Positions 16,852 through 49,953 of a stretch of DNA of 64,000 nt are shown here, one piece after another. The stretch comes from a virus (lineage: Duplodnaviria > Heunggongvirae > Uroviricota > Caudoviricetes). Every line of letters begins with the position of its first letter. The stretch's first letter is position 1. The position numbers and the translations under genes were made by a program. The stretch covers positions 1 to 64,000 of the IMG/VR virus record IMGVR_UViG_3300012348_000136; one strand, written 5' to 3'. The notes under the pieces were generated by a model. That model was not told where the DNA came from, ran no database searches, and worked only from the letters and a program-made list of their open reading frames with translations.

Positions 16852-16871
16852 CATCACATACACCAACAAAT

Positions 16872-19854: not shown

Positions 19855-19863
19855 ATTTTCTTG

Positions 19864-19892: not shown

Positions 19893-19900
19893 CAACTATC

Positions 19901-20368: not shown

Positions 20369-20369
20369 A

Positions 20370-21430: not shown

Positions 21431-21774
21431 AGATCTATAGCGATAAATTCGCTGATTCCGATTATGAAGTGATCGCTACAAACGTTCCTGAACCAAAACA
21501 TTCGTCGTTCTTTTATGCGCCTTACATACCATTAATGATTATAAAACCTATGGACGAATACACTGCATTTATGCATAGTTACAATCACAAGCATTCATGT
21601 TGCCCAAGTTGCGGATGCAATAGCACAATTCAAACTTTGGTTGCATACGTCTTGGATCTATCAAAGAAAGAAGAATATGTAGACCGTAATGGATGTACGT
21701 GTTGCGGTTGTGGATGGACTGGAATTGTGCATGACCTAACATCTCCTAAAGAAAATGAAAGTGAAATCTCTTAA
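21421..21774 (+). CDS. Cys-rich zinc-binding protein
   Basis: CCPSCGC ... CTCCGCGW; start trimmed from track ORF 21382. Confidence 0.4.
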   Translation: MDVKIYSDKFADSDYEVIATNVPEPKHSSFFYAPYIPLMIIKPMDEYTAFMHSYNHKHSCCPSCGCNSTIQTLVAYVLDLSKKEEYVDRNGCTCCGCGWTGIVHDLTSPKENESEIS

Positions 21775-33781: not shown

Positions 33782-33797
33782 ACATAATACAAATACT

Positions 33798-34880
33798 ATG
33801 TCATCCGTACTCGATAAACTAAAAAAGAATTGCCGAATTAAAGAAGCAGATGTCCTTTCAGAATCGGACTTCTATTCGGAAAAGGATATTACTCCTACAC
33901 CAGTGCCAATGATTAATGTTGCTCTTAGCGGCAGCATTGATGGTGGTCTTACTAGCGGACTTACTGTTCTTGCAGGTCCGTCCAAGCACTTCAAGACTAG
34001 CTTTGCGCTTCTTATGGCTGCAAGCTATCTGAAAAAGCATAAGGATGCAGTTCTTATGTTTTATGATTCCGAATTCGGATCGCCACAGCAATACTTTGAA
34101 AGCTTTGGCATTGATACATCGCGCGTTCTACATGTTCCTATTAAGAACATTGAAGAACTAAAGTTTGACTTGGTCAATCAGCTTGATCAAATTGAACGTA
34201 AGGATAAGGTTGTAATTGTTATCGACTCGGTTGGTAACCTTGCAAGTAAGAAGGAACTTGAAGATGCTCTGAACGAAAAGAGCGTCGCTGACATGACGCG
34301 CGCAAAGGCGCTAAAAGGTCTGTTCCGTATGGTTACTCCATATCTTACAATGAAGAACATTCCGCTTATTGCAATTAACCACACCTATCAGGAAATTGGA
34401 TTGTTCCCGAAGGCGATTGTTAGCGGCGGCACCGGCATTACTTACAGTGCCGACAACATCTGGATTCTTGGTCGTCAGCAAGATAAAGATGGTACTGAAA
34501 TTCAGGGATATCACTTCATCATTAACGTCGAGAAGTCTCGCTTCGTTAAGGAAAAGTCGAAGATCCCGATCAGCGTAAGTTGGGAAGGCGGTATTCAGAA
34601 GTGGTCTGGATTGCTTGATGTTGCTATTGACGGTGGATATGTTATCAAACCAAAGAATGGTTGGTACATGGCAGTGAACAAGGCAACTGGAGAACCGCTT
34701 ACGCAAAACTTGCGAGCTGCGCAGACTATGACGTCTGACTTCTGGGAGAAGGTGTTTAATAACACTAACTTTGCCAAATACATTAAAGACAAGTATACAA
34801 TTGGTCTGCGTGACATGATCACTGAGACTGCTTCTAAAGACTTGTCTGATGATGAAATCCTTGAGCAGTACGAAGAGTAA
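33798..34880 (+). CDS. uvsX: UvsX RecA-like recombinase
   Basis: Extensive similarity to my recollection of T4 UvsX (MINVALSG ... LAGPSKHFKTSFAL ... LFYDSEFG ... DSVGNLASKKELEDALNEK ... DMTRAKALKGLFR ... NHTY). Confidence 0.8.
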   Translation: MSSVLDKLKKNCRIKEADVLSESDFYSEKDITPTPVPMINVALSGSIDGGLTSGLTVLAGPSKHFKTSFALLMAASYLKKHKDAVLMFYDSEFGSPQQYFESFGIDTSRVLHVPIKNIEELKFDLVNQLDQIERKDKVVIVIDSVGNLASKKELEDALNEKSVADMTRAKALKGLFRMVTPYLTMKNIPLIAINHTYQEIGLFPKAIVSGGTGITYSADNIWILGRQQDKDGTEIQGYHFIINVEKSRFVKEKSKIPISVSWEGGIQKWSGLLDVAIDGGYVIKPKNGWYMAVNKATGEPLTQNLRAAQTMTSDFWEKVFNNTNFAKYIKDKYTIGLRDMITETASKDLSDDEILEQYEE

Positions 34881-35179
34881 TGATTGAAGGAAAAGACTAC
34901 TTGTTGGTCGAAGATGATTTACATCCAGACCAATTCCTGATACAATTAACAAGTAGCGGATATGCTGGTGTAATTTACCGTTATGGTAAAGTCAGTATAG
35001 TTGAGGAAAAGAATCAGGCACGCTTGAAGTTTATCTACAAGATTGAGAGCGTGCCTGATTTTCTCACACACCGCCGCGACAAATTGCAAGAAGATCCTGA
35101 GTTCAATAATCTGCTCGGTGAAATTCTCGCTGACATTCTCTCAAATAACGACTGTAAAATAGGAAGACCACATGATTGA
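34880..35179 (+). CDS. small protein in the position of T4 gene 40
   Basis: Lies between the uvsX and gp41 homologues as gene 40 does in T4; no motif support. Confidence 0.35.
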   Translation: MIEGKDYLLVEDDLHPDQFLIQLTSSGYAGVIYRYGKVSIVEEKNQARLKFIYKIESVPDFLTHRRDKLQEDPEFNNLLGEILADILSNNDCKIGRPHD

Positions 35180-36581
35180 TATTTCTCTTGAATCCCTTAT
35201 CTTAAACAACCTTGTCAACAATGAAGCATACACACGCAAAGCTATGCCTCATATTAAGCCTGAATACTTTACAGGCTCTCAGCGTGTAATCTATGAGCTG
35301 ATTCTTGACTTCATCAGCAAGTATAATAAGCTTCCAAACGCTAGTGTACTTGACATTGAATTTCAAAAAAGTAATGCAGCGGTGCGTCCAGACCGTCACG
35401 ATATTCTAAAAGAGATACGTGAATTTAGTACGCCACAACCAGCTGAACATGAATGGCTTGTAGACAGCACTGAAAAGTGGTGTAAGGATCGCGCTGTTCA
35501 TTTGGCTGTTATGGAAGCCATCTCAATCATCGATGGCAAAAATAAAGATAAGGCCGAAGGAGCAATTCCTGAGATTCTTAACAAAGCTTTAAGCGTAACA
35601 TTTGATACAAACGTAGGTCACGACTATCTTGAGAATGCTGATCGTCGATTTGATTTCTATCATCGTGTTGAAGATAAGATTGAGTTTGATCTTGATATGC
35701 TTAATCAAATTACCAATGGCGGTGTTCCTCGTAAGACACTAAATATCATCCTTGCAGGTACAGGTGTTGGTAAGAGTTTGGGTATGTGTCACCTTGCCGC
35801 AGCTGACCTTTCTATGGGTCGCAACGTTCTTTACATTACGATGGAAATGGCAGAAGAACGTATTGCTGAACGTATTGATGCTAACCTGCTTGATGTTCGT
35901 ATTGATGAGCTAAAGAACTTGTCACAAACTGCTTTCTCATCGAAGATTAAGAACCTATCAGAACGCACAAAAGGTAAGATTGTTATTAAGGAATATCCAA
36001 CAGCTAGTGCACATGCTGGACACTTCCGCGCATTGCTACATGAGCTGAAACTGAAAAAGAAGTTTACGCCTGATGTCATTTACATTGACTATCTTAACAT
36101 TTGCGCTAGCAGCCGTATTAAAGGATTAAGCGGTAGTGTTAATACTTACAGCTTAATCAAGGCTATTGCTGAAGAACTACGTGGTCTTGCGGTTGAATTT
36201 AATGTTCCGATTTGGAGTGCAACACAGGTTACACGTGGCGGCTATAACAGTTCCGATGTTGAACTAACTGACACATCCGAAAGTTTCGGTTTGCCTGCAA
36301 CCGCTGACTTGATGATTGCGTTTATCAGCACTGAGCAACTTGAAAAGATGAATCAGCTTATGGTTAAACAGCTCAAGAATCGTTATAATGATGCAAATAC
36401 AAATAAGCGATTCACTGTTGGTATTGATCGCTCAAAGATGCGACTGTATGATGTTGCTGATCCAACCGCAAATATTATGAGTGAGGAATCTTCATCAGCT
36501 GCGCCAGTTGCAAATACACCATTTAGTCGAGGCGGTAATAATGCACAAAGAGGAAAATCCTTTAGCGACTTCAAAGTATGA
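35172..36581 (+). CDS. 41: gp41-like replicative DNA helicase (DnaB family)
   Basis: ILAGTGVGKSLGMCHLAA ... NVLYITMEMAEE ... IDANLLDV ... GLPATADLMIA match my recollection of T4 gp41. Confidence 0.8.
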   Translation: MIDISLESLILNNLVNNEAYTRKAMPHIKPEYFTGSQRVIYELILDFISKYNKLPNASVLDIEFQKSNAAVRPDRHDILKEIREFSTPQPAEHEWLVDSTEKWCKDRAVHLAVMEAISIIDGKNKDKAEGAIPEILNKALSVTFDTNVGHDYLENADRRFDFYHRVEDKIEFDLDMLNQITNGGVPRKTLNIILAGTGVGKSLGMCHLAAADLSMGRNVLYITMEMAEERIAERIDANLLDVRIDELKNLSQTAFSSKIKNLSERTKGKIVIKEYPTASAHAGHFRALLHELKLKKKFTPDVIYIDYLNICASSRIKGLSGSVNTYSLIKAIAEELRGLAVEFNVPIWSATQVTRGGYNSSDVELTDTSESFGLPATADLMIAFISTEQLEKMNQLMVKQLKNRYNDANTNKRFTVGIDRSKMRLYDVADPTANIMSEESSSAAPVANTPFSRGGNNAQRGKSFSDFKV

Positions 36582-36630: not shown

Positions 36631-36804
36631 ATGCACCCAGTTCTTAATCAGGATGAATGCGGTTACATTCAAGTAATTCAGGATTTTTCAATTGGATCAC
36701 GTCGTACGCAAAGAGAAGGAAGATGGTTAGGTATGCTACCACCGCCCGATCATCTATGCTCACGACATGTTGAAATAAATGCTGAAGATTTAGTGTTTGT
36801 ATAA
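36631..36804 (+). CDS. small ORF (57 aa)
   Basis: Hand-read; low support. Confidence 0.2.
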   Translation: MHPVLNQDECGYIQVIQDFSIGSRRTQREGRWLGMLPPPDHLCSRHVEINAEDLVFV

Positions 36805-36807
36805 ATA
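36800..36807 (+). promoter_or_regulatory. T4-type late promoter core
   Basis: Exact TATAAATA a few nt upstream of the ATG at 36814. Confidence 0.4.
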
Positions 36808-36813
36808 GACTAT

Positions 36814-38364
36814 ATGTCTACAACACTTAGCTTAAAAGGATACTTAGCTGAGGCGATTTCCTCGTCTTCAGCGGATAAAGCAGCTTTCCTTATTGCTAAA
36901 TATCTCAAGAAAAAGACAGGATTGATCTTCTTCCGTTATCCGGGCCTTGAGAAATTTAAAAGCAGTAAAGGTCAGGGATTCGGCTTACGCTTCTATACTC
37001 ACAAAAAGAATCGCTCTGTTCGATTTAACTGGGTTAGCGTAACTGCAGTTGGAATGGTTGGTCTACACAGCATCGACTATTGGGATGGCGTTTCGGATAC
37101 ACCATGGCACATCGAGTTTGACACTGAAGTTTCATTGGTTAAGACATTGCCGATCATTGCATCGATGATCAGTAAGGTAAAACCAGAACTTGGTTCGTTC
37201 TATACTCTACCAGATGGTGTTCCTCTTGAGGAAGCAGGCCTTGTTGCAGAATCAGCAATGATTCTTGAAGCAAAAGGCGGTGTTAGTGTTGAGGATATGC
37301 TTGACGGTATTCTTGACATGGTTGCAATGCCAAACTTCTCAAAGGGTAAGGTATACACTGCATACAAAGGCGCTGGTATGAAGATCTTCGATCAGCTTGA
37401 AATGATGTACCCAACCTTGATTGTTAAGAGCGGTACAAAGTATACTTGGGATGGTTCTCCAAAGGATCTGCAAAAGATCAAAAAGGAAAAGAACAAGTTG
37501 CTTGCGGCAATTGGTAGTGTTGAAGCAAAGGTAACAAAAGGCGCATCTAATGAAACATATGCGCCTGAAGGTAACATCGCTGAAATTGAAAATAACCGCG
37601 AGCGCCTTTCATTTGAAAAGCAGTTGCTTGACCTTGAGAACTTGCTTAAGCTAACGGTCAACGGTGCCGCAAACGCAATCTTCGTTTCAGGTAAAGGTGG
37701 TGTTGGTAAGACTCACACAACCGAAAAGATTCTTGCAAGCATGGGTCTACGTGACGGTGCTGGTTACTTCAAGAATACTGGTTCTGCTTCGGCTGCTGGT
37801 ATGTACTCGTTGCTATTCCGCTACAAGAACGATATTATCTTCTTCGATGACTCTGACGACGCTCTTAAGGATCAGGAAAGCCGTAACTTGCTTAAGGCTG
37901 CAACTGATACCAAGAAGATTCGTAAGCTTGTTTGGAACAAGATGGGTAAGAACGTTGTTGATAACGAGGATATGACCGACGAAGAAATCCTTGACCAAGG
38001 GTTGATTCCACGTTTCTTCGAATTCACTGGTAAGGTAATCTTTATCTCTAACCTTGATCTTGACAAGCTAGATCCAGACGGTGCACTACGCACTCGCGCA
38101 TTCATCGTAAACATCGATCCAACTGAAATGGAAATCTATGATTTCATGGAAAAGATCGTTGGTGATATCCAACTTGAAGATGGTCTTACGCTTGATCTTA
38201 CAGCACGTAAGCACGTTGTTGATCTGCTACGTAAAGGTAAGAGCAAACAAAGCGCTAACCTTCGTAAGCTATCACGCGGCCTATCTATGGCAGCAGGTGC
38301 ACTTGCAGCTGGCGTTGATGTCAGCGACAATGACCTGCAGCGCATGATTGAAACATACGCTTAA
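36814..38364 (+). CDS. AAA+-type P-loop ATPase with an unknown N-terminal domain
   Basis: Walker A GKGGVGKT, Walker B IIFFDD about 55 aa later, sensor-1-like VIFISN, then ALRTRAF. Confidence 0.5.
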   Translation: MSTTLSLKGYLAEAISSSSADKAAFLIAKYLKKKTGLIFFRYPGLEKFKSSKGQGFGLRFYTHKKNRSVRFNWVSVTAVGMVGLHSIDYWDGVSDTPWHIEFDTEVSLVKTLPIIASMISKVKPELGSFYTLPDGVPLEEAGLVAESAMILEAKGGVSVEDMLDGILDMVAMPNFSKGKVYTAYKGAGMKIFDQLEMMYPTLIVKSGTKYTWDGSPKDLQKIKKEKNKLLAAIGSVEAKVTKGASNETYAPEGNIAEIENNRERLSFEKQLLDLENLLKLTVNGAANAIFVSGKGGVGKTHTTEKILASMGLRDGAGYFKNTGSASAAGMYSLLFRYKNDIIFFDDSDDALKDQESRNLLKAATDTKKIRKLVWNKMGKNVVDNEDMTDEEILDQGLIPRFFEFTGKVIFISNLDLDKLDPDGALRTRAFIVNIDPTEMEIYDFMEKIVGDIQLEDGLTLDLTARKHVVDLLRKGKSKQSANLRKLSRGLSMAAGALAAGVDVSDNDLQRMIETYA

Positions 38365-38795
38365 TGAAACTCGTAAAAGTATACGGCTGCTCAAAAACCC
38401 CAACTCGTAAGGACTTAGTCCGCCGAGCAGCCGTATACTTTCTTAAGCTTTTACTACCACGTAAACGAAAAATACAAATTGACATTCATCTCGAAGAAGA
38501 CCTTATAACAAAAGAAAGCGTCTATGGTGAATGTTATCATATGTCTAAGTCGCCGTCTAAGTATAAAATACGGCTTGACAAAGACATGAATGATCTTACG
38601 CTAATAACAACACTGGCGCACGAATTTATCCACGTGAAACAGTTTGATCGCAATGAATTAGCGTTTCTTTATAGCTGTAGCCGTTGGCACGGCGAATATT
38701 ATCCAGATGATGAGTTTATTGAAAGTGAAGAACCATGGGAGGTTGAGCCGCGTGAACGCGAATCAGACTTAGCCTCAAAATTCTTTGCACAATAA
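38364..38795 (+). CDS. HExxH zinc-metallopeptidase-like protein
   Basis: TLAHEFIHVKQ motif. Confidence 0.45.
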   Translation: MKLVKVYGCSKTPTRKDLVRRAAVYFLKLLLPRKRKIQIDIHLEEDLITKESVYGECYHMSKSPSKYKIRLDKDMNDLTLITTLAHEFIHVKQFDRNELAFLYSCSRWHGEYYPDDEFIESEEPWEVEPRERESDLASKFFAQ

Positions 38796-38804
38796 ATATC
38801 ATCT

Positions 38805-39626
38805 ATGGCTGCATCAGAAGGAGTAGATTTAGAATGGGCGATTGTTGACTATGTAAATACTCAGATGTCAAACAAAATAGTATCGTCTGGTAAAACATAT
38901 TCTAAGAAGATAGAAGACCAAGCAAAAAAATGCACTGAGCATATTATTAAGTATGCAGCTGGCAAGCGCGTTGAAGCGTGGCATTCAGACGATTCAACAA
39001 ATCCATTTGGGATTGCGATTTACGCGAAACCGGAACCTAAAACCGATATTATACTTAAGATCGGCTCAAAGGTTTATTCTACATCGGTTAAAATGGCTGG
39101 AGGCGTACAATTAGCATCAGGCCAGGGTTCGTCAACAGCGGACTTATTTGAGGCAGCATCAAAGTCATTAAGCAATTCAAAAAAGAAAACAGTATTAAGT
39201 TCTATCATAAAAGAATTAAGAGTTCTTCCTACTAGATTATTATCACAATCAAATCTCAATAGGATTTTAACTGAAGGATCAGATTCAACAATTAAGGAAT
39301 TTGTATCACGTGGAAAAATCATAAGTGATAAAAGCTATGACTTGTGGTTGAAAAATAATAAGCCAAAATTAATGAGTGATTTGCTGAGTTATATCCAAAA
39401 GGATAAGGAATTCACTGAAGCTCTACTATATGAAAGTATGACTGGTGAGCAAACGTTAAAGTCATATAGAGGAGCGGTTGCGGATTCAATTATTAGTCCT
39501 AAAGGATTCTATGTCATAGATTCAAAATATGTGTCTTCTATCATGAATAAGATTAAATTTGACATCCGCGGTAAGTCAAGAAGTGGAATTACTGGACTAG
39601 CATTCAGAATAGATTTAAAAGCATGA
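38805..39626 (+). CDS. hypothetical protein (273 aa)
   Basis: Track ORF. Confidence 0.45.
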   Translation: MAASEGVDLEWAIVDYVNTQMSNKIVSSGKTYSKKIEDQAKKCTEHIIKYAAGKRVEAWHSDDSTNPFGIAIYAKPEPKTDIILKIGSKVYSTSVKMAGGVQLASGQGSSTADLFEAASKSLSNSKKKTVLSSIIKELRVLPTRLLSQSNLNRILTEGSDSTIKEFVSRGKIISDKSYDLWLKNNKPKLMSDLLSYIQKDKEFTEALLYESMTGEQTLKSYRGAVADSIISPKGFYVIDSKYVSSIMNKIKFDIRGKSRSGITGLAFRIDLKA

Positions 39627-40924
39627 AATCATTTAGAAGTTTTTTAACTGAAGGAGCAAACCTTGCACCAGCCGAACTTTATAAGTACGATTGGCGTCTT
39701 GAGCTGTTTATCGACAAACTTAAAAGTGGGCTACCATTAGCTCTTGTAAAAGGCGGAGAGATTTCGCTGCACTATGACGCGGACGCTGAAAGTCGTTTAC
39801 GCGCTAAGCAAGACCCAGGTAAGATTTCTTTTCGAGGTTATGACAATTCCGTCTATTACCTAAAGGACTTTGCAAAGTCAAAGGAATTTGGAGGAGGCGG
39901 TGGTTCTGGTGCAGGTGCCGACGTTACACAGCTAACCGAAAGCGCGCAGGCAGTTTATGCTGCAGCTAAATGGGCTGGCGCTAAGACATATAATACTGCT
40001 GAATTAACTCAAGGATATTCTCACTCTGAAGTTGATGATGATCTTAATCGTATCTTAAATGACTTGCCAAAAGAATGGCGTGAGTCATGCATTCTTGGTG
40101 CTGAGGAATTATACAAACTACTTCATGGAAAAGCTTACACATTCCATCGTGGTAGTGCATGGGTAGATAAACTTGAAAAGCACTTCAAGACTCTTAATTC
40201 TAAAGAGAAGGCTTTCTCAAACTTAAATAAGTGGAGTCCAGCTGATATTTACTTAGTGTCTCCTGTTGGTAAAAATATTCACTTTGAGAATGCACAAAGT
40301 ATTGCTGAATTAAACAGCATGCTAACTGAAGCATTAAAGAACAAAGATGTAGTTGGCGTGTCATTGAAGCTACTTAAAAAGAATGCTCATATTTCATACT
40401 ACAACTTTGATACCAAGAAAAAGATTGTTGAATTTGATCACTTCACAACTGGTAACAAAGGATTCTTTAGCGGTAAGGACGTCTATATGTACTTTACGTT
40501 AGACGGTAAGATTCAGTTCCGTACATTTCCCGAAACATTCCAAGGCGAAATTAAAGGTAAGAATGCTAACCAAGGGAAGTTAAGTTATGGACCAATTCAA
40601 ACGATTCTTCGCCAACTAAAGCTACCTCAGCTGATTGACGTTAAGAAACTGCGTAGCGGATTGCAAAAGAGCGACCCAACCTTGCTTAAGGAGTTTTATT
40701 CAAACTATACACGTTACTCAAAGGACACCGTAAAGGTTTCATATGACGAGTTTGTTGACAGGATAAAAGATCAGGGCGTTTCTTGGTCCTTTAGTAAATT
40801 CCTTGGAGTTGAACTTATTGACATAATCTCAAAAAGCTCGCAAGAAGACGAGTTTATTACAGCATGCATCAGCTATGCAAGTAGCAGCAGCGATCTTAGC
40901 GCACCATTTATCAAATTAGAATAA
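39623..40924 (+). CDS. putative internal head protein (capsid-targeting-sequence-like N-terminus)
   Basis: N-terminus MKSFRSFLTEG resembles the T4 internal-protein targeting peptide MKTYQEFIAEA. Confidence 0.45.
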   Translation: MKSFRSFLTEGANLAPAELYKYDWRLELFIDKLKSGLPLALVKGGEISLHYDADAESRLRAKQDPGKISFRGYDNSVYYLKDFAKSKEFGGGGGSGAGADVTQLTESAQAVYAAAKWAGAKTYNTAELTQGYSHSEVDDDLNRILNDLPKEWRESCILGAEELYKLLHGKAYTFHRGSAWVDKLEKHFKTLNSKEKAFSNLNKWSPADIYLVSPVGKNIHFENAQSIAELNSMLTEALKNKDVVGVSLKLLKKNAHISYYNFDTKKKIVEFDHFTTGNKGFFSGKDVYMYFTLDGKIQFRTFPETFQGEIKGKNANQGKLSYGPIQTILRQLKLPQLIDVKKLRSGLQKSDPTLLKEFYSNYTRYSKDTVKVSYDEFVDRIKDQGVSWSFSKFLGVELIDIISKSSQEDEFITACISYASSSSDLSAPFIKLE

Positions 40925-40927
40925 CAC

Positions 40928-42166
40928 ATGAAATCATTTAAAGACTACATCGCTGAGGCTTCGGCTGAAGGCAAAAATTTACACATGACTCATATCGAGG
41001 ATGCTGTTATTTACGGCGGCATTAAAGGAGCACGTGATGCAATTCTTGCGTTGCGAAGCTTACGCGATATGCTCGCGGGTAATGCTAAATCAGCCACAGA
41101 CGTTACAGTAAAATGGGATGGTGCACCGGCAGTATTTGCTGGTATTGATCCATCGGACGGACAGTTCTTTGTTGCTAAGAAAGGTATCTTCAACAAGAAT
41201 CCAAAGATCTATAAGAGCGTGTCAGACGTTCGTGCTGATACGTCTGGAGACCTTGCTGATAAACTGTCCATTGCTTTTAATGAATTACAAAAGCTTGGAA
41301 TTAAAGGAGTGCTACAAGGTGACATTATGTTCACCCAAAAGGATCTTAGTGTTGAAGACTATGATGGAGAAAAGTACATCACGTTTCAGCCCAACACAAT
41401 TGTTTATGCAGTTCAAGCTAATAGCGAAATTGCAAAGACTATCAAGAAAGCTAAAATTGGCGTAGTATTCCATACACGATACACCGGAGCTACTCTTGAA
41501 AGTATGAAAGCTTCTTATGACTTTGATCAAAGCGAACTTAAAAAGACTTCGTCAGTTTGGTTCCAAGACGCAAAAGTTCATGACCTTTCAGGTAAGGCTA
41601 CCTTTACAGCTGAAGAGACCGCTGAGCTAACCGCAAGACTGTCAGTTGCAGGTAAGATATTTCAAAAGATCAACGGTTCTACACTCAAGGAAATTGAAGA
41701 CAATCCTGACTTTGCACAAAGCCTTGAAACATTCAATAACACATATGTACGTCGCGGTGAAACCGTAAAGGATACAAAAGCACATGTTGATAACTTAATC
41801 AAATGGGCAACAGATCGCTTCAATAAAGACATCGAGTCTAAGAAGTCAGCAAAAGGTAAGGAAGCTGCATCGGCAAAACGCGACGACTATATGAAGTTCT
41901 TTTCGGATGAAAACAAAAAGAACCTCAACTTGGTTTATCAGCTACAAAATGCAATTATTGATGCAAAGATGTTAATTATAAATAAACTCGATACTCTTAA
42001 AAAGTTAAGTACTTTTATTAGAACTAAGAACGGATTTAGAGTTACAAGTCAAGAAGGTTTTGTTGCAATTGATCATTTATCAGGTGGCGCAGTAAAATTG
42101 GTTGACCGCATGAATTTCTCTTATTCAAATTTTAGTCCTGACGTAATTAAAGGATGGGATCGCTAA
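40928..42166 (+). CDS. putative internal head protein (capsid-targeting-sequence-like N-terminus)
   Basis: N-terminus MKSFKDYIAEA; also carries a KWDG motif reminiscent of nucleotidyltransferase motif I. Confidence 0.45.
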   Translation: MKSFKDYIAEASAEGKNLHMTHIEDAVIYGGIKGARDAILALRSLRDMLAGNAKSATDVTVKWDGAPAVFAGIDPSDGQFFVAKKGIFNKNPKIYKSVSDVRADTSGDLADKLSIAFNELQKLGIKGVLQGDIMFTQKDLSVEDYDGEKYITFQPNTIVYAVQANSEIAKTIKKAKIGVVFHTRYTGATLESMKASYDFDQSELKKTSSVWFQDAKVHDLSGKATFTAEETAELTARLSVAGKIFQKINGSTLKEIEDNPDFAQSLETFNNTYVRRGETVKDTKAHVDNLIKWATDRFNKDIESKKSAKGKEAASAKRDDYMKFFSDENKKNLNLVYQLQNAIIDAKMLIINKLDTLKKLSTFIRTKNGFRVTSQEGFVAIDHLSGGAVKLVDRMNFSYSNFSPDVIKGWDR

Positions 42167-42167
42167 T

Positions 42168-43166
42168 ATGAAACAATCAGATACACCTGCAAGTAAAGAA
42201 CCTAAGAAGATTCGATTAAAGGATCTTATCGCTGTTGACTACACTGACGACTCATGGCCTGAGGACGAAGAAGGACAGTTAGCATACGATTATTGGAAGC
42301 GCGCGTCTGGAGTTCTTGATGAGGAAGAAATTGAAGAAGGCATTGATTGGTTTAAGCTTGTCTATGGTGACAGCAAATTAGCTATTGCTAAGAAGATTAA
42401 AGCTACCCCATCTAAGACTTTAGAAACTCTAGCTAAATCAAATCCAAATGCAGCTGGTGCTCAAAAATTTCAGCATGAGTTTGCCGTAAAAGAACTTGAA
42501 TATCGCAAGAAGATTAATGATCATTCTGACGGTAACCCAAAATATAAGAAAGAATATGGGAATGGATATAGTCATTTAGAAGATTCACTCGAAGAATCTC
42601 ACGATTCTCAAATCTCTAAGTATGAACTAAATGGCGAGCTTAAGCGTGTAAATGATCGTATTAAGTTCCTACGTGCGGCTCATCATGGTTCCTCTTTACC
42701 TAAGGACGTTTCATCTGAGCTAAAGCGACTTGAAGATCAACGTGATAGTATTCTTTCAATGCTTAAGGAAGAAGATATCCTTGAAGATGTTGACTCTGAG
42801 ACTATCACAGAGGCACTTAATATGTTGCAGCGCATGAAGCGCCGCGCGATTATGCGTAGAAACAAATCAAAGATTCTTGCAGGCCGTCGTCGCGCGCAAC
42901 GCCGCCGCGCATCCACCTCAGTTCTTCAGCAACGTGCAGTGCGCGCGGCTCGTGCTGCTCTTGCTCGCCGCTTGTTACATAAAAATAAAGGTGAAGCTAG
43001 CTATGGTGAAAAGGTTCGAGTTGAAAGAATGCTTGCTGCTCGCCAAGGGGCAATTAAGAACATTGCTCGCCGTCTTCTTTCAAAGGTTCGTCAAAAGGAA
43101 CGTATGCGTTTCCAAAAGCATGCTACCCCTCCAAAGCCAATCCAATCCATTAAGCCAAATAAGTAA
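42168..43166 (+). CDS. hypothetical protein with a strongly basic C-terminus
   Basis: Arg-rich tail RRRAQRRRAST... Confidence 0.45.
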   Translation: MKQSDTPASKEPKKIRLKDLIAVDYTDDSWPEDEEGQLAYDYWKRASGVLDEEEIEEGIDWFKLVYGDSKLAIAKKIKATPSKTLETLAKSNPNAAGAQKFQHEFAVKELEYRKKINDHSDGNPKYKKEYGNGYSHLEDSLEESHDSQISKYELNGELKRVNDRIKFLRAAHHGSSLPKDVSSELKRLEDQRDSILSMLKEEDILEDVDSETITEALNMLQRMKRRAIMRRNKSKILAGRRRAQRRRASTSVLQQRAVRAARAALARRLLHKNKGEASYGEKVRVERMLAARQGAIKNIARRLLSKVRQKERMRFQKHATPPKPIQSIKPNK

Positions 43167-44401
43167 TGGGACTCAAATCATTCCGTACCTACACCGAAGA
43201 ATCAACTAAGGAATTAGTTGCGACATTCGGCCGCTTTAATCCGCCGACAATTGGTCATGAAAAATTGATTAATGCGGTTGCAAAAGAAGGCAAAGGTAAA
43301 ACATATCGCATTTACGCATCGCAAAGCGAGGATTCAAAAAAGAACCCGCTATCTTACGATGATAAGATTAAATTTATGCGTAAGATGTTTCCACAGTATG
43401 GTCGCAATATCATACTGGATCGCGCAATCAAAAATGTGTTTAACGTAGCGTCAGCTGCACATGACGATGGCTACACAAAATTCACGTTGGTTGTAGGGAG
43501 CGATCGTGTTCCAGAATTTAAGTCTTTGCTTGCAAAGTATGATGGTGTTAAAGGTACACATGGGTACTATAAATTCCGTGATGGTATTCAAGTTGTATCT
43601 GCGGGCGAACGCGATCCTGATGCAGACGATGTAAGTGGTATGAGTGCATCAAAGATGCGTGCTGCGGCGGCTGATAACGATCTTGATACTTTTGCAAAAG
43701 GACTGCCTAAAACATTTGGTGAAGTCAAGGAGTTGTTTAATGCTGTGCGAAAAGGAATGGGTCTAAAAGAAAGCCATAACTTCCGTAAGCATGTTCAGTT
43801 TGAGCCACTAAGCAATATTCGTGAACGCTATATTGCTGGAGAAATTTTCAATGTTGGCGATGAAGTTTATGCTGAATCTGAGAGTGACATGATCCTTACT
43901 GTTGAATCACGCGGACCAAACCATGTCACGTGTAAACTACCAAATGGAGAAACCAAACGCTTCTTTATAACCGATCTGCATATAGTTGAAGGCTCTTCAT
44001 ACTATACGGGCCTGTCAAAATCAACCGCTGATAAACGCGAAAAGCATTTTGACAAGAACGCTAAGAAGGATGACGATGATGACAGTGCATACGCGCCTGC
44101 ACCAGGCGATAAGACCGCTGTCACTAAACCTTCAAAATACACAAAAGAATATCAAAGGAGATTTGATGAAGGCGCTAGCCCAGTGTCTAAAGCACTGCGT
44201 AAAAAGTCAGAAGATTCTGGTATTGACTATGGTATACTTAAAGACGTATATGACCGTGGACATGCTGCATGGAGAACTGGCCATCGTCCTGGAACAACGC
44301 CTGAGCAGTGGGGATTGGCTAGAGTAAACAGTTTTATAGTTGGAGGAACAACCCGCAAGACCACAGACTCCGACTTATGGAAAAAGCATAAAGGTAAATA
44401 A
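43166..44401 (+). CDS. cytidylyltransferase-like nucleotidyltransferase, NMNAT candidate, with capsid-targeting-like N-terminus
   Basis: N-terminus MGLKSFRTYTEES, then GRFNPPTIGHEKL (HxGH motif) and SGMSASKMR (ISSTxxR-like); unknown C-terminal half. Confidence 0.5.
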   Translation: MGLKSFRTYTEESTKELVATFGRFNPPTIGHEKLINAVAKEGKGKTYRIYASQSEDSKKNPLSYDDKIKFMRKMFPQYGRNIILDRAIKNVFNVASAAHDDGYTKFTLVVGSDRVPEFKSLLAKYDGVKGTHGYYKFRDGIQVVSAGERDPDADDVSGMSASKMRAAAADNDLDTFAKGLPKTFGEVKELFNAVRKGMGLKESHNFRKHVQFEPLSNIRERYIAGEIFNVGDEVYAESESDMILTVESRGPNHVTCKLPNGETKRFFITDLHIVEGSSYYTGLSKSTADKREKHFDKNAKKDDDDDSAYAPAPGDKTAVTKPSKYTKEYQRRFDEGASPVSKALRKKSEDSGIDYGILKDVYDRGHAAWRTGHRPGTTPEQWGLARVNSFIVGGTTRKTTDSDLWKKHKGK

Positions 44402-44409
44402 ATAAACAT

Positions 44410-45648
44410 ATGAAGAAACTTTCACAAATTGAATCAGAAGCCATTGCGATATATGAAAATATGGAAATGGCACTCGGAGGTAACTCAAATGAAATTGTCC
44501 CTCCAATCACACCAGCGACGGTTGACCGTGTTGGTTCTGCGCTAGAGAAGTTAGATCAAATTGGCGAAATGGCAAATGATCTATACAATACAATTTCTCA
44601 TCTTGAAGAAATTGATGCAGAGACTGATGCTGCTCTAACAGGTGCATACAATTCTATTGACGACCTATACACGAAGATTGATGACAAGTATGACGTCATT
44701 CCAGTTGAACTCGATGAATATGACATTGAGGAAGAACTTGAACTTTCAGCCGACATTGAAATCATTGCTGAAAAGCTATCAGCTGATGCAGATGCATCTG
44801 AATGGATCGATGATTTTGTCAATAGCGATGCTCCACAGTTTAAAGGTAAGTCCAAGAAGGAACGTATCAAGATGGCTCTAGGCGCATACTATGGTGCACA
44901 AAAGAACGAAGAAGTTGATCTTGAAGAAGCAGCTGCATCTGACACTAAATGGCGAGTAGCATTCTCATATGCTGATCCATCTGGATCTGGTGTTGCTAAT
45001 GCTAGAATCGTTATTAAAGCAAACGATTCCGAAACTGCAAAACGATATGCAGAAACAAGTCTTAAAAGAAAAGGCAATTACAAAGATTTCAAAATTAAGT
45101 CTGCTTCGAAGATGAATGAAGAAGTTGAGCTTGAAGAAGCGCTGTTACCAAGTCACAATTGGAGTCCTGGTCATGATATGGTACCTGCGCCAATTGGTAA
45201 AGATACTATAACTGCAAAAGGAACGACCAAAGACATTCAAAAACTTTGGGGTATCAAAATGCGCGCAGGAAAGTGGGCTGATACCTTCGTTGGCATGTAT
45301 AAAGATGGAACGCTTGGAATTTTTAACAATGATGGCGAATGGAAATATAAAAATGTAGCCGATTTTGAAAAAGCCTTTGCTAAATTCCGTAAGACAGGCG
45401 ATCTTGACGAGAATGTTGACCTTGAAGAAAGTGTTAACCTTCCAAAAATCAAAGAGCTTGTATCACTTGCTCTAATTGATGAAAAAGATGTACCTGCTAC
45501 AATTGCTGCATTAAAAGCAACTCAATCTGATAAGACATTAACTCCAGCGCAAACCAAACTACTTGGTAACCTTGCTGTTATGTTGACCAACGTTATCCTT
45601 GGAGATACAAGTGCATTGTCCAGCGTTAAGCGCGCATCTAAGGAATAA
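44410..45648 (+). CDS. acidic repeat protein, possibly a processed internal-protein precursor
   Basis: Repeated EEVDLEEA, EEVELEEA and ENVDLEES (LxE-type sites). Confidence 0.45.
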   Translation: MKKLSQIESEAIAIYENMEMALGGNSNEIVPPITPATVDRVGSALEKLDQIGEMANDLYNTISHLEEIDAETDAALTGAYNSIDDLYTKIDDKYDVIPVELDEYDIEEELELSADIEIIAEKLSADADASEWIDDFVNSDAPQFKGKSKKERIKMALGAYYGAQKNEEVDLEEAAASDTKWRVAFSYADPSGSGVANARIVIKANDSETAKRYAETSLKRKGNYKDFKIKSASKMNEEVELEEALLPSHNWSPGHDMVPAPIGKDTITAKGTTKDIQKLWGIKMRAGKWADTFVGMYKDGTLGIFNNDGEWKYKNVADFEKAFAKFRKTGDLDENVDLEESVNLPKIKELVSLALIDEKDVPATIAALKATQSDKTLTPAQTKLLGNLAVMLTNVILGDTSALSSVKRASKE

Positions 45649-45838
45649 CTCTAATCCACCTTTGCCTAACCTAAGGATTATTTTATGATCCCTTCGGGAA
45701 CCTTCGGTCAATCTAGTTTCTTCTGGATTGGCCGTTTGTTTATATGCAGCCATCAAACGGTTGCTGCGGAATGAATACTTAATTATTATAACATGGTCTG
45801 CGAGAATGTAAATAACAAAATTCACAATATATACAATT

Positions 45839-46618
45839 ATGGACTTTAATGGAAGAAAAGATTTAGTAAAGAGAGTGCAATCTGCTCTGGGATTACAAGT
45901 GGATGGAGATGATGGCTTTAAAACATGGTCAGCTATTGTCGAAAAGATTTGCCCTCTTGAAACTGAAGCACCAAAACCAGTTCAACCTGAACCATCAGTT
46001 GGATTATCACCTCGCGCTTTAAAACTAATCATCGACTATGAAGTTGGTGGAGGTGAAGGTTACTACAATGCTGCATTAAAGCGTCCATGTTATCCAGGCG
46101 GTCAAAGCGGAGTTACAATTGGCATCGGCTACGATTTAGGATACAATACCGTAGCACAATTTCAATCTGATTGGGGATTCCATCTTAGCGGCGGCGACTA
46201 CAATCGACTCGTTCAACATGTCGGCAAAAAAGGATCGTCTGCTAGCGCTGCAATATCTTCTGTTAGGGATATTCAAATATCTTGGGAAGATGCGCTTGCG
46301 GTATTTAAACAGAGTACTTTACCACGCTTTATTAAAGAAACTCTTCGAGTGTTTCCAGGCGCAGACAAGTTACATCCAGACGCATTTGGCGCACTTGTCT
46401 CGTTGGTATTTAACCGCGGTGGATCGCTCAGCGGAAGCAGCCGAATTGAGATGCTAAATATTTCAAAAGCAATTAAAGGCGAAATTCAAACTCCAAACAT
46501 TTACGGCTATATCGCCGACCAAATTATCGCGATGAAGCGTCTATGGGTTGGTAAAGGACTAGATGGTTTGTTACGTCGCCGCAATGAAGAAGCCGATGTA
46601 ATTCGCAAATGTAACTAA
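45839..46618 (+). CDS. endolysin: peptidoglycan-binding domain plus lysozyme-like catalytic domain
   Basis: VKRVQSALGLQVDGDDGFKTWSAI (PG_binding-like), then GIGYDLGYNT ... ALVSLVFNRG ... GLLRRRNEEADV. Confidence 0.55.
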   Translation: MDFNGRKDLVKRVQSALGLQVDGDDGFKTWSAIVEKICPLETEAPKPVQPEPSVGLSPRALKLIIDYEVGGGEGYYNAALKRPCYPGGQSGVTIGIGYDLGYNTVAQFQSDWGFHLSGGDYNRLVQHVGKKGSSASAAISSVRDIQISWEDALAVFKQSTLPRFIKETLRVFPGADKLHPDAFGALVSLVFNRGGSLSGSSRIEMLNISKAIKGEIQTPNIYGYIADQIIAMKRLWVGKGLDGLLRRRNEEADVIRKCN

Positions 46619-46626
46619 ACGAAAAT

Positions 46627-47895
46627 ATGCCTACCCAATACCTATCAGGACCAAAAACATTAACGCGCGAGCATGCGCGATATGAAGTCCATATGTTAGC
46701 TGACCAACTAACACCTGGCGGATCTATAACCGATGCCTTTGGACGACTACGAACAAGTTCTCCTTTCACTATATTTGACAGCCAGTATCGTTATGGCGAT
46801 AATGGCAAGTGGGATACGTTAACAGCAACAAACGGATCTGCTACACATGTCTCGGCTGAAAACGTAATGTCATTAACTGTCACTAACGAATCAGGTAGCA
46901 AGGTTGTTCGTGAAACACGTCGAGTGATGCCGTATCAGCCAGGAAAAAGTCTACTGATTCTTGCAAGCTTTTGTCTAGGTACTCTTAAAACAAATCTTAG
47001 ACAGCGTGTTGGTTATTTTGGCGACAATGATGGGATATTCCTTGAAGCCAATGGCGAAGATGTATCTCTAAAGATACGCAGCCGCAGTCTCAACACAACA
47101 CTGTCAGCTCCTCGGGCTGAATGGAACGGCGATAAATTTGACGGGACTGGATATAGCGGTCGCACCATTGATTTTTCCAAGTCTCAAATATTTTGGATGG
47201 ACATTGAATGGCTAGGCGTTGGCGATGTTCGTTGTGGCTTTATTGTTGATGGACATTTAATTGTAGCACACACGTTCCATAATGACAACATCCGAACCAC
47301 AACGTATATGTCAACTGCATGCTTGCCTATACGTTATGAAATTGAAAACCTTGCAGCTACTTCAGGCTCAACAACGCTAAAGCAAATTTGCTCTACTGTA
47401 ATTTCCGAAGGAGGTTATGAACAAATCACCAAGCAATGGTCAGCCACTCGAACATCTGCTATAGCAAGCGTCGATGTCGCAACTGGATGGGCTCCTGTTG
47501 TATCACTTCGTCTCAAAAGTGGATACACCGATGCTATAGTTTTACCATCTCAAATCCATATTATCGGGAGCGGTAACTCTAGCACATATGAATATGCATG
47601 TATTCGTAATGCGACTATAACAAACGGTAATTGGACTACGCACACTGGCAGCGGTGGTGTATTGGAATATAACATAGGAGCAACTTCAATGAGTGGAGGC
47701 ACCGTTGAAGACAGCGGAATATTTGCTAGTAGCAACCAATCAAATGCTCTCATCAATGCTTACCTACCAAGCACATTTGAACAGCAACTTGGAAGAACTA
47801 TAGGAGGGACCGCTGATACATATACATTAGCAGTGCGACACTTAGGCACTGGCGGAAACGTCTATGGAACTCTAAACTGGAACAGCATACTCTAA
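46627..47895 (+). CDS. hypothetical Gly/Ser/Thr-rich beta-type protein (422 aa)
   Basis: Track ORF; composition resembles fibre or decoration proteins. Confidence 0.4.
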   Translation: MPTQYLSGPKTLTREHARYEVHMLADQLTPGGSITDAFGRLRTSSPFTIFDSQYRYGDNGKWDTLTATNGSATHVSAENVMSLTVTNESGSKVVRETRRVMPYQPGKSLLILASFCLGTLKTNLRQRVGYFGDNDGIFLEANGEDVSLKIRSRSLNTTLSAPRAEWNGDKFDGTGYSGRTIDFSKSQIFWMDIEWLGVGDVRCGFIVDGHLIVAHTFHNDNIRTTTYMSTACLPIRYEIENLAATSGSTTLKQICSTVISEGGYEQITKQWSATRTSAIASVDVATGWAPVVSLRLKSGYTDAIVLPSQIHIIGSGNSSTYEYACIRNATITNGNWTTHTGSGGVLEYNIGATSMSGGTVEDSGIFASSNQSNALINAYLPSTFEQQLGRTIGGTADTYTLAVRHLGTGGNVYGTLNWNSIL

Positions 47896-47896
47896 T

Positions 47897-48439
47897 ATGA
47901 AATCATTTAAAACATACGTAGAAAATTCTACAATCCCTAAGGCTTTACTATATCATATTCTATATGATATCCCATTAGCGCAAAATGTGTTTCGTCCACA
48001 TACTCCAAACTATTATGCATTGTTTGAGTATGCACGCCAAAATGTAGATAGTCTTGAAACTCTATCTGAATTTGATCGTATGCTTATGGAAAGCGACATT
48101 GGTCAAATTGGAATATATGAAGGACAGGAAGTTCCGCTTGACCATCCTCTACTTGAAAAAGAAGATGAAGACGTAGAACTCAATTCTCCAAAGCGCGGCG
48201 GATCTAAGAAATACTATGTCTATGTTAAGAATGATAAAGGCAACATTATCAAAGTTCAGTTTGGAGACACTTCTGGATTAACTGCAAAGATTGATGATCC
48301 AGCTGCTCGCAAATCATTTGCGGCGCGTCATAACTGCGATCAGAAAAAGGATAAGACCAAGCCTGGGTATTGGGCGTGTCGCCTCCCTTATTATGCTAAG
48401 CAACTTGGTCTTAAAGGCGGAGGTTCATTTTATTGGTAA
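47897..48439 (+). CDS. putative internal head protein (capsid-targeting-like N-terminus)
   Basis: N-terminus MKSFKTYVENS. Confidence 0.4.
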   Translation: MKSFKTYVENSTIPKALLYHILYDIPLAQNVFRPHTPNYYALFEYARQNVDSLETLSEFDRMLMESDIGQIGIYEGQEVPLDHPLLEKEDEDVELNSPKRGGSKKYYVYVKNDKGNIIKVQFGDTSGLTAKIDDPAARKSFAARHNCDQKKDKTKPGYWACRLPYYAKQLGLKGGGSFYW

Positions 48440-48440
48440 T

Positions 48441-48710
48441 ATGAATACTCCTTATTATGATAGTGAAAAAGCGAATAACAAGTGGATTCGCGAATTTAAG
48501 CCAAATACTGATAGTCATGAATTAGTTTGGCATCGTGACCATAATGATCGAATCGTTAAGGTATTAGACGGCCAAGGCTGGGTGTTTCAAATGGATGAAC
48601 AGGTTCCATATGAACTACGCAAAGGCGATGTATTAAATGTGCCTAAGCAAACATATCATCGTCTGTTTAAAGCTGGAGATACTACTTTAAGAATTGAGAT
48701 TACTGAATAA
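48441..48710 (+). CDS. small cupin-like protein
   Basis: Trimmed from track ORF 48291..48710; HRDHNDRIVKVLDGQGW ... KGDVLNVP. Confidence 0.4.
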   Translation: MNTPYYDSEKANNKWIREFKPNTDSHELVWHRDHNDRIVKVLDGQGWVFQMDEQVPYELRKGDVLNVPKQTYHRLFKAGDTTLRIEITE

Positions 48711-48716
48711 TTTCAC

Positions 48717-49073
48717 ATGGACTTAAACGATCGCACCTTTGCCTTATATGCAGCTAAGAATTATCGCAATCCATGTTGCACTGACATTAAGGAATTTTAT
48801 GAAGACTTATTGAGGTTTAAGTATCTTAAGAAACTACTTAAACGATATAAGGATAAAGGCGATCTACAAGAAAGACTAATTCTTAATCACATAATTATCA
48901 TCCATAACTCATTTGGAGTTGCGGCTGGCATACGCTTATGCTTTTTCAAAATACCAGAAGAGTATTGGCCTGCATTGAAAACCTTCTTGCTGTACTTAAA
49001 CTATGTACACCGTGACGACTATATAAATATACCAAGCGATATGTACGTCGCGCGTAAACTGCAGCAAATTTAA
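48717..49073 (+). CDS. hypothetical protein (118 aa)
   Basis: Track ORF. Confidence 0.45.
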   Translation: MDLNDRTFALYAAKNYRNPCCTDIKEFYEDLLRFKYLKKLLKRYKDKGDLQERLILNHIIIIHNSFGVAAGIRLCFFKIPEEYWPALKTFLLYLNYVHRDDYINIPSDMYVARKLQQI

Positions 49074-49084
49074 TTTTAAGACGT

Positions 49085-49669
49085 ATGGGATTACTTTCAA
49101 GAGCAACTGACACCTTTTATGCATTCCGCTTTTTGCGCTTGCTTACTACTCCATGGGAAAAGACTGGAGCTTATAAAGCAGGAATTATTGATGACAGAGG
49201 AAAGCTTATAAAGAAGCCTGAAACATCGGACGAAAAGAGCGTCTATAACTATTTTCATCGTCTAGTGTTTAATGTCAAGCGTATGTTAAACAAGCTACCG
49301 CTTGGGAAGACAACAATTGCAAGTTATCTTACTGCGTTGTTTCTTATTAAAGAGCACGCTGATTTATCAAACGAAGCGCTGTTAAAGGCGCTAAGCGAAA
49401 TTGCAGATGTAAAAGCATGCATGATGCCTTTACTTGAAAGCACTTGGTATCAAACCGACAACGGTTATTTGCGTGAAGGCGCATATATGCTACGCCATAC
49501 ACTACCTTTACCAAAGACGGGTGAACTCCTTGCATTGCGCAATACTCGTGTAATTGCTGAATCTGACGTCAAGCCTTGCGGAAATATTTTTGGAGCTCCT
49601 GTCTACAAGGTGCACCATCAGAAGACTAACCAATACATTTACGTAACCCAAGCTGACCTAATCCAATGA
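49085..49669 (+). CDS. hypothetical protein (194 aa)
   Basis: Track ORF. Confidence 0.45.
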   Translation: MGLLSRATDTFYAFRFLRLLTTPWEKTGAYKAGIIDDRGKLIKKPETSDEKSVYNYFHRLVFNVKRMLNKLPLGKTTIASYLTALFLIKEHADLSNEALLKALSEIADVKACMMPLLESTWYQTDNGYLREGAYMLRHTLPLPKTGELLALRNTRVIAESDVKPCGNIFGAPVYKVHHQKTNQYIYVTQADLIQ

Positions 49670-49953
49670 CCAACGAAGATACAACAACCGCCGCAGTTGC
49701 AATGCCTCCATCAGACTATCCAAAGACTGGAGCAACATGGAGACTCTTTAGTGTGAAGCCTGACGTCTTCCGTAGATTCGAGACTGGACGCAACAAATTT
49801 GAACGTTGGTCTAAGTACTTAGATTTGACTGACGAGACTCATAAAGAGATTGTTGATTATGCTAAGAAGAACAAAGGAAAGAAGACCATCGTACTTCAAT
49901 GCAGTGAGACCGGCGCGATGCGAAGCATCAGAAAACGTGCTGCCAATGAATAA
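49666..49953 (+). CDS. hypothetical protein (95 aa)
   Basis: Track ORF. Confidence 0.4.
   Translation: MTNEDTTTAAVAMPPSDYPKTGATWRLFSVKPDVFRRFETGRNKFERWSKYLDLTDETHKEIVDYAKKNKGKKTIVLQCSETGAMRSIRKRAANE

Follow-up and report, generated by a model that had tools for sequence, protein, structure and literature searches.

A probable T4-type capsid-loading tag on unrelated proteins of a Kyanoviridae-related myovirus

The capsid targeting sequence of bacteriophage T4, reportedly described by Mullaney and Black in 1996, is the closest described counterpart of a short N-terminal tag found on several proteins encoded in a 64,000-nt stretch of the virus record IMGVR_UViG_3300012348_000136. This whole stretch is termed the window here, and all coordinates are positions in it. 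The region 36800-48439 of the window quite probably encodes capsid cargo of a T4-like myovirus related to Kyanoviridae, delivered by a tag of the T4 type. Both the T4 sequence and the internal proteins IPI, IPII and IPIII that bear it have been reviewed (PMC9026906, PMC3012670). An earlier note on this DNA had read the N-termini of several open reading frames (ORFs) as capsid-targeting sequences on packaged and injected proteins, a proposal which finds support in the statistics of likeness to the T4 tag, in the modularity of the tag and in selection at the level of the peptide, as well as in a gp23-type cleavage site, a conserved late promoter and the occurrence of orthologues in cyanophage virions.

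The locus shares with the T4 internal proteins a ten-residue tag laid out as M-K-[ST]-[YF]-x-x-[FY]-[IL]-x-E and followed by A, in which positions 4 and 7 are hydrophobic and, in three of the six window tags, positions 8-10 read [IL]-x-E. In both, the tag is carried by otherwise unrelated proteins, several of whose genes are clustered, and arginine- or lysine-rich cargo of a DNA-binding type is present. Unlike IPI-III, the window cargo mostly measures 180-516 aa and has enzyme-like domains, a conserved core (DUF6267, a nucleotidyltransferase and an arginine-rich protein) is common to a huge group of marine phages, gene 41 and the nrd genes flank the locus, and the phage is Kyanoviridae-like rather than a member of the Straboviridae. 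The mature parts also lack similarity to IPI-III, as the earlier note had stated: scans against Pfam, PHROG and NCBIfam return other families or none, with no internal-protein family among the Pfam and PHROG matches, which is to be expected because internal proteins of the T4 group share only the tag (PMC3012670). The size of the cargo, which had been taken as a departure from T4, turns out not to be one, given that T4 Alt is a large ADP-ribosyltransferase that is packaged, processed by gp21 and injected from the head (PMC9026906); enzyme-sized cargo is therefore compatible with the T4 route. The enzymes predicted here differ from Alt in having a ligase fold and an HxGH fold, and their processing is a prediction. 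Further parallels exist in the gp21-cut core proteins gp22, gp67 and gp68 of T4, which one acidic product of the locus with repeated L-x-E sites resembles, although it is encoded away from the head module and consists of shuffled modules, and in the giant phages phiKZ and SPN3US and the Dar proteins of P1, where many proteins are packaged in the head and ejected (PMC5694885). In the giant phages a related prohead protease cuts the ejection proteins behind Glu, but their propeptides often exceed 100 residues, their sites read A-x-E or S-x-E and there is no ten-residue tag of the T4 type (PMC5694885).

N-terminal tags and the T4 capsid targeting sequence

Four ORFs, referred to by their first position (39623, 40928, 43166 and 47897), begin M-K-S-F-x-x-[FY]-[ILVT]-x-E, their N-termini being MKSFRSFLTE, MKSFKDYIAEA, MGLKSFRTYTEE and MKSFKTYVEN, respectively, and a fifth, 44410, begins with the aliphatic variant MKKLSQIESEA. 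All of the ORFs and N-termini quoted in the earlier note were found at the positions it gave. The extent it assigned to the locus, 38805-49953, holds insofar as these tagged ORFs lie inside it, but the true start is earlier, since the ORF at 36814-38364 also carries a shifted tag; its N-terminus, MSTTLSLKGYLAEA, is a displaced copy of the motif that is clearer in the homologues MSKLTEFKRYLTEA and MSNVVSFKSYLAEA. The ORFs 38364, 38805 and 45839, 46627 and those at 48444-49953 are without such an N-terminus.

Both IPII and IPIII, in the T4 sequence taken from NC_000866, start MKTYQEFIAEA, to which the N-terminus of 40928 shows six identities and four conservative changes in eleven residues. When the N-termini of 235 window ORFs were scored against the T4 tag with BLOSUM62, 40928 came first (32) and 39623 second (23), and five of the top six belong to this locus, with 43166, 36814 (joint fifth) and 47897 among them; the best of the 19,626 internal 10-mers of the window scores 24. 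Because the N-termini of the locus top this scoring, with 32 for 40928 against 24 for the best internal 10-mer, similarity by chance is not upheld, and the likeness to the T4 targeting sequence is better than chance, as had been claimed. Over the whole 64 kb, the motif written as a regular expression occurs in only those four genes and at one internal start.

Targeting by the T4 tag depends on positions 4 and 7, and its processing on positions 8 and 10 (PMC9026906); deviating tags apart, these four positions are held by F, F/Y, I/L and E in the window genes. F4 together with F/Y7 is found in 39623, 40928 and 47897, and with an offset of two residues in 43166, while the variants have L4 and I7 (44410) or L and Y with an offset (36814). 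The cleavage part, [IL]-x-E, is present in 39623 (L-T-E/G), 40928 (I-A-E/A) and 36814 (L-A-E/A), and homologues of 44410 read L-L-E/A at this position. AlphaFold2 models show the tags as disordered. At least five, and probably six, unrelated proteins of the window thus appear to carry a capsid-loading tag of the T4 type. Far from the tagged locus, the ORF at 21755-22456 has an alternative start at 21797, and the product from this internal ATG, MAIQEEKSFEEYLMEK, is a possible seventh tag with a longer prefix; the ORF has no family assignment.

The expression M-x(1-4)-[FYW]-x-x-[FYW]-[ILVMT]-x-[ED] was run on the window and 83 related loci, comprising 80 IMG/VR loci fetched with the DUF6267 protein encoded by 40928 and 3 loci from isolates. 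Among plus-strand ORFs, 173 of 1,845 begin with a match (9.4%), the controls being 3 of 958 minus-strand ORF starts (0.3%) and 42 of 8,472 internal Met positions. These loci are phylogenetically dependent, so that raw counts overstate the number of independent events, and it is safer to rely on how many unrelated cargo clusters bear the motif. Once the first 20 residues had been trimmed and the proteins grouped, the motif was found at the head of 26 clusters under the looser threshold, several very short proteins among them. Taken together, 119 unique N-termini give the consensus M-K-S-F-K-[QE]-Y-[IL]-[TS]-E-A. One and the same family can include members with the tag and members from which it is precisely missing: homologues of the 433-aa protein 39623 are either tagged or start about 10 residues later, and N-termini of the family read MKSFRSFLTEGANLAPAELYKYDW in some members and MASLSQQEIYKYDW in others. 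Judged by these sequences, the tag is a module moving across unrelated cargo.

Selection acts on the peptide and not on the DNA, because synonymous codons occur at background frequency and the upstream DNA is dissimilar. Across 137 distinct gene starts, the invariant Phe is encoded by TTT and TTC in a ratio of 79/21 (background 72/28) and the invariant Glu by GAA and GAG in a ratio of 82/18 (background 76/24), and the DNA upstream of the tagged window genes differs from one gene to the next. The variable positions of the tag swap conservatively, F for Y, I for L and T for S.

The second half of the tag coincides with a processing site of the T4 head. T4 gp23, annotated as cleaved by gp21, contains the sequence ...GSFLTE65/AEIGG, the cut falling after Glu65, and the start of 39623, MKSFRSFLTE/G, shares a pentapeptide with this site (SFLTE/ context), the second half of its tag, F-L-T-E, being identical. 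The head module of Methylophilales phage Melnitz comprises a T4-type portal, small core proteins, a prohead core serine protease, gp22 and gp23, of which gp23 has AFLSE/AA and gp22 has AELEE/A near its N-terminus. At the syntenic locus of Melnitz, N-termini read MQGFKTFLSEA, LINFSKYITE, MKKFSELTSE and MKKFSEIIEA, and with about 97% of the genome covered the strict motif occurs in this locus only. Prohead core proteins and a protease are also present in phage S-SZBM1 (PMC9146016).

Orthologues of the tagged proteins have been detected in the particles of related phages. In S-SCSM1, the syntenic block between helicase and nrdA contains ORFs 89-93, 95 and 97, which are annotated as virion proteins from mass spectrometry; ORF91 ("NMNAT") is 42% identical to 43166 and starts MKSFLQFLKEA, and ORF90 is 34% identical to 39623. 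NMNAT-like proteins have been repeatedly detected in cyanophage virion proteomes according to the S-SCSM1 paper (PMC9602691), a cytidylyltransferase and the adjacent hypothetical protein were reported from the virion proteome of S-SZBM1 (PMC9146016), and a cytidylyltransferase from that of S-CREM2 (PMC10665884). Such NMNAT-like or cytidylyltransferase proteins are thereby on record for the virions of four phages, S-SCSM1, S-CBWM1, S-SZBM1 and S-CREM2, and the enzyme of S-SZBM1 starts MRFRQFIIEA. No literature linking DUF6267 or cytidylyltransferase virion genes to a targeting tag was found, in a search that did not extend to subscription journals, so that an earlier description is possible.

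Operon layout, putative cargo proteins and genomic setting

The locus consists of the following features.

36800-36807, plus strand: late-promoter box of the T4 type, TATAAATA, 6 nt 5' of the ATG of 36814
36814-38364, plus strand: P-loop ATPase-like protein, 516 aa, first gene of the operon, shifted tag MSTTLSLKGYLAE then A (AAA_16 weak; phrog_1250, 9.6e-27)
38364-38795, plus strand: putative small metallopeptidase, 143 aa, HExxH (HEFIH), untagged (DUF6782 weak; phrog_10499)
38805-39626, plus strand: basic protein, 273 aa, pI 9.5, untagged, function unassigned (phrog_22045)
39623-40924, plus strand: tagged putative cargo, 433 aa, MKSFRSFLTE then G, family found throughout cyanomyoviruses
40928-42166, plus strand: tagged putative cargo, 412 aa, MKSFKDYIAE then A, predicted DUF6267 ligase-fold nucleotidyltransferase with a helical insert
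42168-43166, plus strand: protein with acidic N-part and arginine-rich C-part, 332 aa (phrog_23027)
43166-44401, plus strand: tagged putative cargo MGLKSFRTYTEE, 411 aa, HxGH nucleotidyltransferase (NMNAT-like) with DUF5824
44410-45648, plus strand: acidic modular protein, 412 aa, aliphatic tag MKKLSQIESE then A
45705-45734, plus strand: terminator-like hairpin of 12 pairs, then a T-rich tail, at the end of the first transcription unit
45839-46618, plus strand: lysozyme-family protein, 259 aa, untagged (Phage_lysozyme, 23.5 bits against a cut-off of 22.3)
46627-47895, plus strand: virion structural protein family, 422 aa, untagged (phrog_1645, 2.1e-110)
47897-48439, plus strand: putative cargo, 180 aa, with the targeting half of the tag only (MKSFKTYVEN) and no [IL]-x-E (phrog_7595)

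The genes from 36814 to 45648 are tightly packed, overlapping or separated by gaps of at most 9 nt, and a second hairpin lies 3' of 49953. Boxes of the TATAAATA type have 8 matches in the window against 3.4 expected, and the box in front of 36814 keeps the same distance to the ATG in 16 of 16 homologous loci examined, with differing flanks. Late-promoter boxes are not clearly enriched before tagged genes (27 of 173, as against 151 of 1,442), only the box of the first gene being conserved, and sigma-70-like promoters are as numerous as in shuffled sequence. The gap of 6 nt between box and ATG, a spacing kept in 16 loci, leaves no room for a ribosome-binding site, which suggests that the late mRNA from this box is leaderless or nearly so.

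The locus is not simply hypervariable, as the earlier note had said of that of T4, but has a conserved core with a variable periphery of tagged accessory genes. The family of 38364 is a conserved member of the operon with 45 homologues in the related loci, none of which has the motif. The family of 46627 is annotated as a virion structural protein in cyanophages and HMO-2011, and N-termini in that of 47897 include MKKFKDFISE and MKSFKEYTT. The adjacent lysozyme gene had been offered as a parallel to T4, where the lysozyme gene (gene e) is a conserved neighbour; this was rejected, and the adjacency is incidental, as only 6 homologous ORFs, the window's own included, occur across the window and its related loci. 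PHROG and NCBIfam scans assign no function to 38805, 39623, 42168, 44410 or 47897.

The DUF6267 protein 40928 is a predicted ligase-fold nucleotidyltransferase. The KWDG motif noted earlier is present at residues 62-65, and K62-W-D64-G65, E376-G377 and K390 are invariant in 30 homologues; as the alignment may be read, E376-G377 would correspond to ligase motif IV and K390 to motif V. Neither sequence nor profile searches of the PDB brought up a significant match for 40928, 39623 or 43166. The model of 39623 (AlphaFold2, pLDDT 87) has residues 1-10 disordered, and structure comparison of it returned no PDB match and only uncharacterised cyanophage proteins. Some DUF6267 homologues of about 500 aa (P0058, P0118) bear a fused cupin domain, a small cupin-domain ORF (Pfam Cupin_2, 5e-8) lies at 48444-48710 of the window, and an 89-aa ORF that follows the nucleotidyltransferase in Melnitz shares the motif ELVWHRD with it, so that this cupin may be functionally part of the locus.

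The product of 43166 belongs, by its sequence motifs, to the HxGH nucleotidyltransferase superfamily, with assignment as an NMNAT being putative. It matches Pfam CTP_transf_like at 26.5 bits (cut-off 21) and DUF5824 at 2.9e-22, its family conserves FGRFNPPTxGH (FGRFNPPTIGH in the window) and MSASKMR, and every member is tagged, the tag standing directly before the catalytic domain. Against the NCBIfam NMNAT equivalog it scores 19 bits, the threshold being 341, and a PDB profile search yields weak matches only, to MJ0951, NMNAT and NadR. A NAD-related role is a reasonable idea because the window encodes NAMPT, PRPP synthetase and a NADAR domain protein, and with no other NMNAT among the window ORFs scanned, 43166 might complete a NAD salvage route. 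The NAD-related cluster itself occupies 12775-20900 and includes genes for the PRPP synthetase (12775-13725), NAMPT (16872-18458), a nucleoside 2-deoxyribosyltransferase-like protein (19339-19854) and the NADAR domain protein (20370-20900); between the first two lies the gene of a 431-aa SPFH/Band 7 domain protein (14211-15506; Pfam 4.9e-8).

In 42168, an acidic N-part (pI 5.0) is joined to a 117-aa arginine-rich C-part (pI 12.0) via an internal I-T-E/A site at nt 42804-42812. In phages C48C1 and Melnitz, the arginine-rich part is a separate protein of 123-130 aa that starts with the tag (MLSFKQFVSE, MKKFSELTSE).

The acidic protein 44410 contains repeated LEE blocks, which the earlier note had suggested to be additional protease sites. 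The expression [VILM][DEN]LEE has 3 occurrences in the window's plus-strand ORFs, all in 44410 (residues 169, 239 and 336), and the three V-[DE]-L-E-E sites delimit segments 11-173, 174-243, 244-340 and 341-412, two of these modules being basic (pI about 9) in an otherwise acidic protein. There are 26 occurrences in the related loci, against 6 in shuffled sequence, mostly in proteins at the equivalent position of the locus. Homologues start MKKLSDILLEA, an aliphatic version of the tag, are 250-700 aa long, share single segments of the query at 60-86% identity and, where segments meet, carry E-x-[VL]-[DE]-L-E-E-[AS] one to four times. The suggestion gains support from this bordering of shuffled modules, and the AELEE/A of Melnitz gp22 resembles the V-[DE]-L-E-E-[AS] sites. 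44410 probably represents a multi-peptide precursor that an L-x-E protease would cut, and its shuffled modules, two of them basic, suggest that it carries a number of small cargo peptides and is not a scaffold.

As to the wider setting, the long ORFs of the window all lie on the plus strand and the G+C content is about 40%. A UvsX-like recombinase (33609-34880) and a gene-41-type helicase (35172-36581) are encoded 5' of the tagged locus, and nrdB (50045) and nrdA (51038) 3' of it. A ClpP-family serine protease (Pfam CLP_protease 9.9e-10; phrog_1827) is encoded at 56955-57605, with exonuclease genes on both sides. A near-identity DNA search with the locus gave no match among 50,697 phage records. 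Protein searches group the window with T4-like myoviruses in or near Kyanoviridae, the best isolate matches of 40928 being phage C48C1 (54% identity) and Melnitz (49.5%), with further isolate relatives in Stenotrophomonas phage DLP_6, Pelagibacter phage HTVC008M and hundreds of cyanomyoviruses. The same gene order recurs on a 196-kb metagenomic contig at 92% identity, and an exact copy of the 44410 product was found on a 95.7-kb JGI contig. In Melnitz (MZ577098; 22985-23437), the annotation also includes a tmRNA (SsrA) of the phage's own and the curli secretion genes CsgF and CsgG, which are unrelated to the tag.

Proposed loading route and competing explanations

By analogy with T4, transcription of the operon would start at the late promoter TATAAATA before 36814 and probably be closed by the hairpin at 45705, with a second transcription unit extending to about 50022. 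At least five, and probably six, of the proteins would be made with a propeptide of about ten residues, M-K-S-F-K-[QE]-Y-[IL]-[TS]-E followed by A, which would attach to the scaffolding core during prohead assembly through its aromatic residues 4 and 7, as has been shown for T4 IPIII. The segment [FY]-[IL]-[TS]-E would be recognised by a prohead protease of the gp21 type, and removal of the tag would free the cargo inside the head. The same protease may cut 44410 at its three V-[DE]-L-E-E sites and release the arginine-rich C-part of 42168 at I-T-E/A. At infection the matured proteins would accompany the DNA out of the capsid and be active ahead of phage gene expression, the cargo set being predicted to comprise the ligase-fold and NMNAT-like nucleotidyltransferases, the P-loop ATPase, the 433-aa protein, a DNA-neutralising arginine-rich protein and several small modules. 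For the window's own phage we infer packaging and cleavage from these parallels, and the same goes for core binding, for ejection and for what the cargo does in the host. An anti-restriction role, which the comparison with T4 had suggested, is not supported, the evidence speaking neither for nor against it; the cargo looks enzymatic.

Several observations weigh against delivery in the capsid. The locus sits between replication genes (uvsX, helicase 41 and nrdAB) and away from late structural genes. The prohead protease of this phage is presumed from its relatives because the head module, protease included, lies outside the 64-kb window. Half of the six tags depart from the motif where cleavage would occur, with T-E-E in 43166, V-E-N in 47897 and E-S-E in 44410. 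Cyanophage DUF6267 proteins begin at the conserved domain without a tag, and the enzyme can therefore work without it; conversely, ORF90 of S-SCSM1 is found in the virion without a canonical tag, which therefore is not the sole route into the particle. The proteomic support comes from related phages and not from the window's own, and abundant soluble proteins may co-purify with virions, as the authors of one proteome caution (PMC10665884).

Some of these observations would suit a different explanation, in which the proteins are cytoplasmic enzymes of nucleotide and NAD metabolism that are never packaged, 43166 for example supplying the NMNAT that goes with the phage's own NAMPT. On this view the common N-terminus would be a short peptide serving some other purpose, for instance as a helix for oligomerisation or for stability, and detection in virions a matter of carry-over of abundant soluble proteins. 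This explanation agrees with a neighbourhood of replication and nucleotide metabolism genes, with the presence of NAMPT and PRPP synthetase in a window whose scanned ORFs include no other NMNAT, with the untagged cyanophage DUF6267 proteins and with the contamination raised by the proteome authors (PMC10665884). It is nonetheless improbable, as the tag matches that of T4 residue by residue at functionally mapped positions, ends in a capsid cleavage site and is found on many unrelated proteins, very small non-enzymatic ones included, and as four independent virion proteomes agree, with the whole syntenic block detected in S-SCSM1, and a conserved late promoter stands before the operon.

Alternatively, the tag might be read by another machine, either as a degron or adaptor for the ClpP-like protease (56955-57605) or as a signal for incorporation into the tail or baseplate. 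The window does encode this ClpP-family protease, and a tail-fibre-like protein as well as the virion structural protein family are found in or beside the syntenic blocks, but the match to T4 head targeting and to the gp23 and gp22 cleavage sites is specific, and no ClpP degron is known to resemble the motif, which leaves this explanation quite improbable. That the common element is instead a conserved 5' nucleotide sequence (a translation-initiation signal or mobile regulatory cassette) or the product of a recent duplication of gene starts is hardly credible, even though three window genes have ATG AAA TCA TTT in common and mobile regulatory cassettes are known from T4-type phages, since the near-background codon ratios at the invariant Phe and Glu already largely refute it, and the dissimilar upstream regions, the conservative changes at variable positions and the lack of relatedness of the proteins past residue 20 speak against it.

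Meaning for T4-like phages

Delivery in the capsid by a T4-type tag has good support from computation and from the proteomics of related phages. On this reading, a mechanism known from T-even coliphages also serves a remote branch of the T4 superfamily that dominates ecologically, where the cargo is new, in part enzymatic, and probably includes a multi-peptide precursor. Proteins delivered with the capsid act before expression of the phage genes, which makes them prime candidates for host takeover and counter-defence, and they are known in detail for few model phages. In the ocean, few viruses are as abundant as the T4-like phages that infect marine and freshwater bacteria. The tag offers a mechanism for the repeated and so far unexplained presence of NMNAT-like and cytidylyltransferase proteins in cyanophage virions, and it makes DUF6267 and the 433-aa family, both large and uncharacterised, candidates for injection. 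The conserved V-E-L-E-E-[AS] sites suggest how several small peptides could be packaged as one precursor. If the tag works as in T4, the injected proteins of marine and freshwater T4-like phages could be listed from sequence only.

A tentative and rather unlikely wider possibility is that the tag is conserved throughout the T4 superfamily and constitutes a general loading system in the very abundant marine T4-like phages, shuffling some two dozen families around a conserved pair of ligase-fold and NMNAT-like enzymes, which are sometimes fused into one protein, for injection before transcription. If that were so, the injected enzymes might repair cleaved RNA or restore NAD+ against abortive-infection defences, and the set of injected effectors of uncultured ocean phages would become readable from metagenomes by a scan for the tag.

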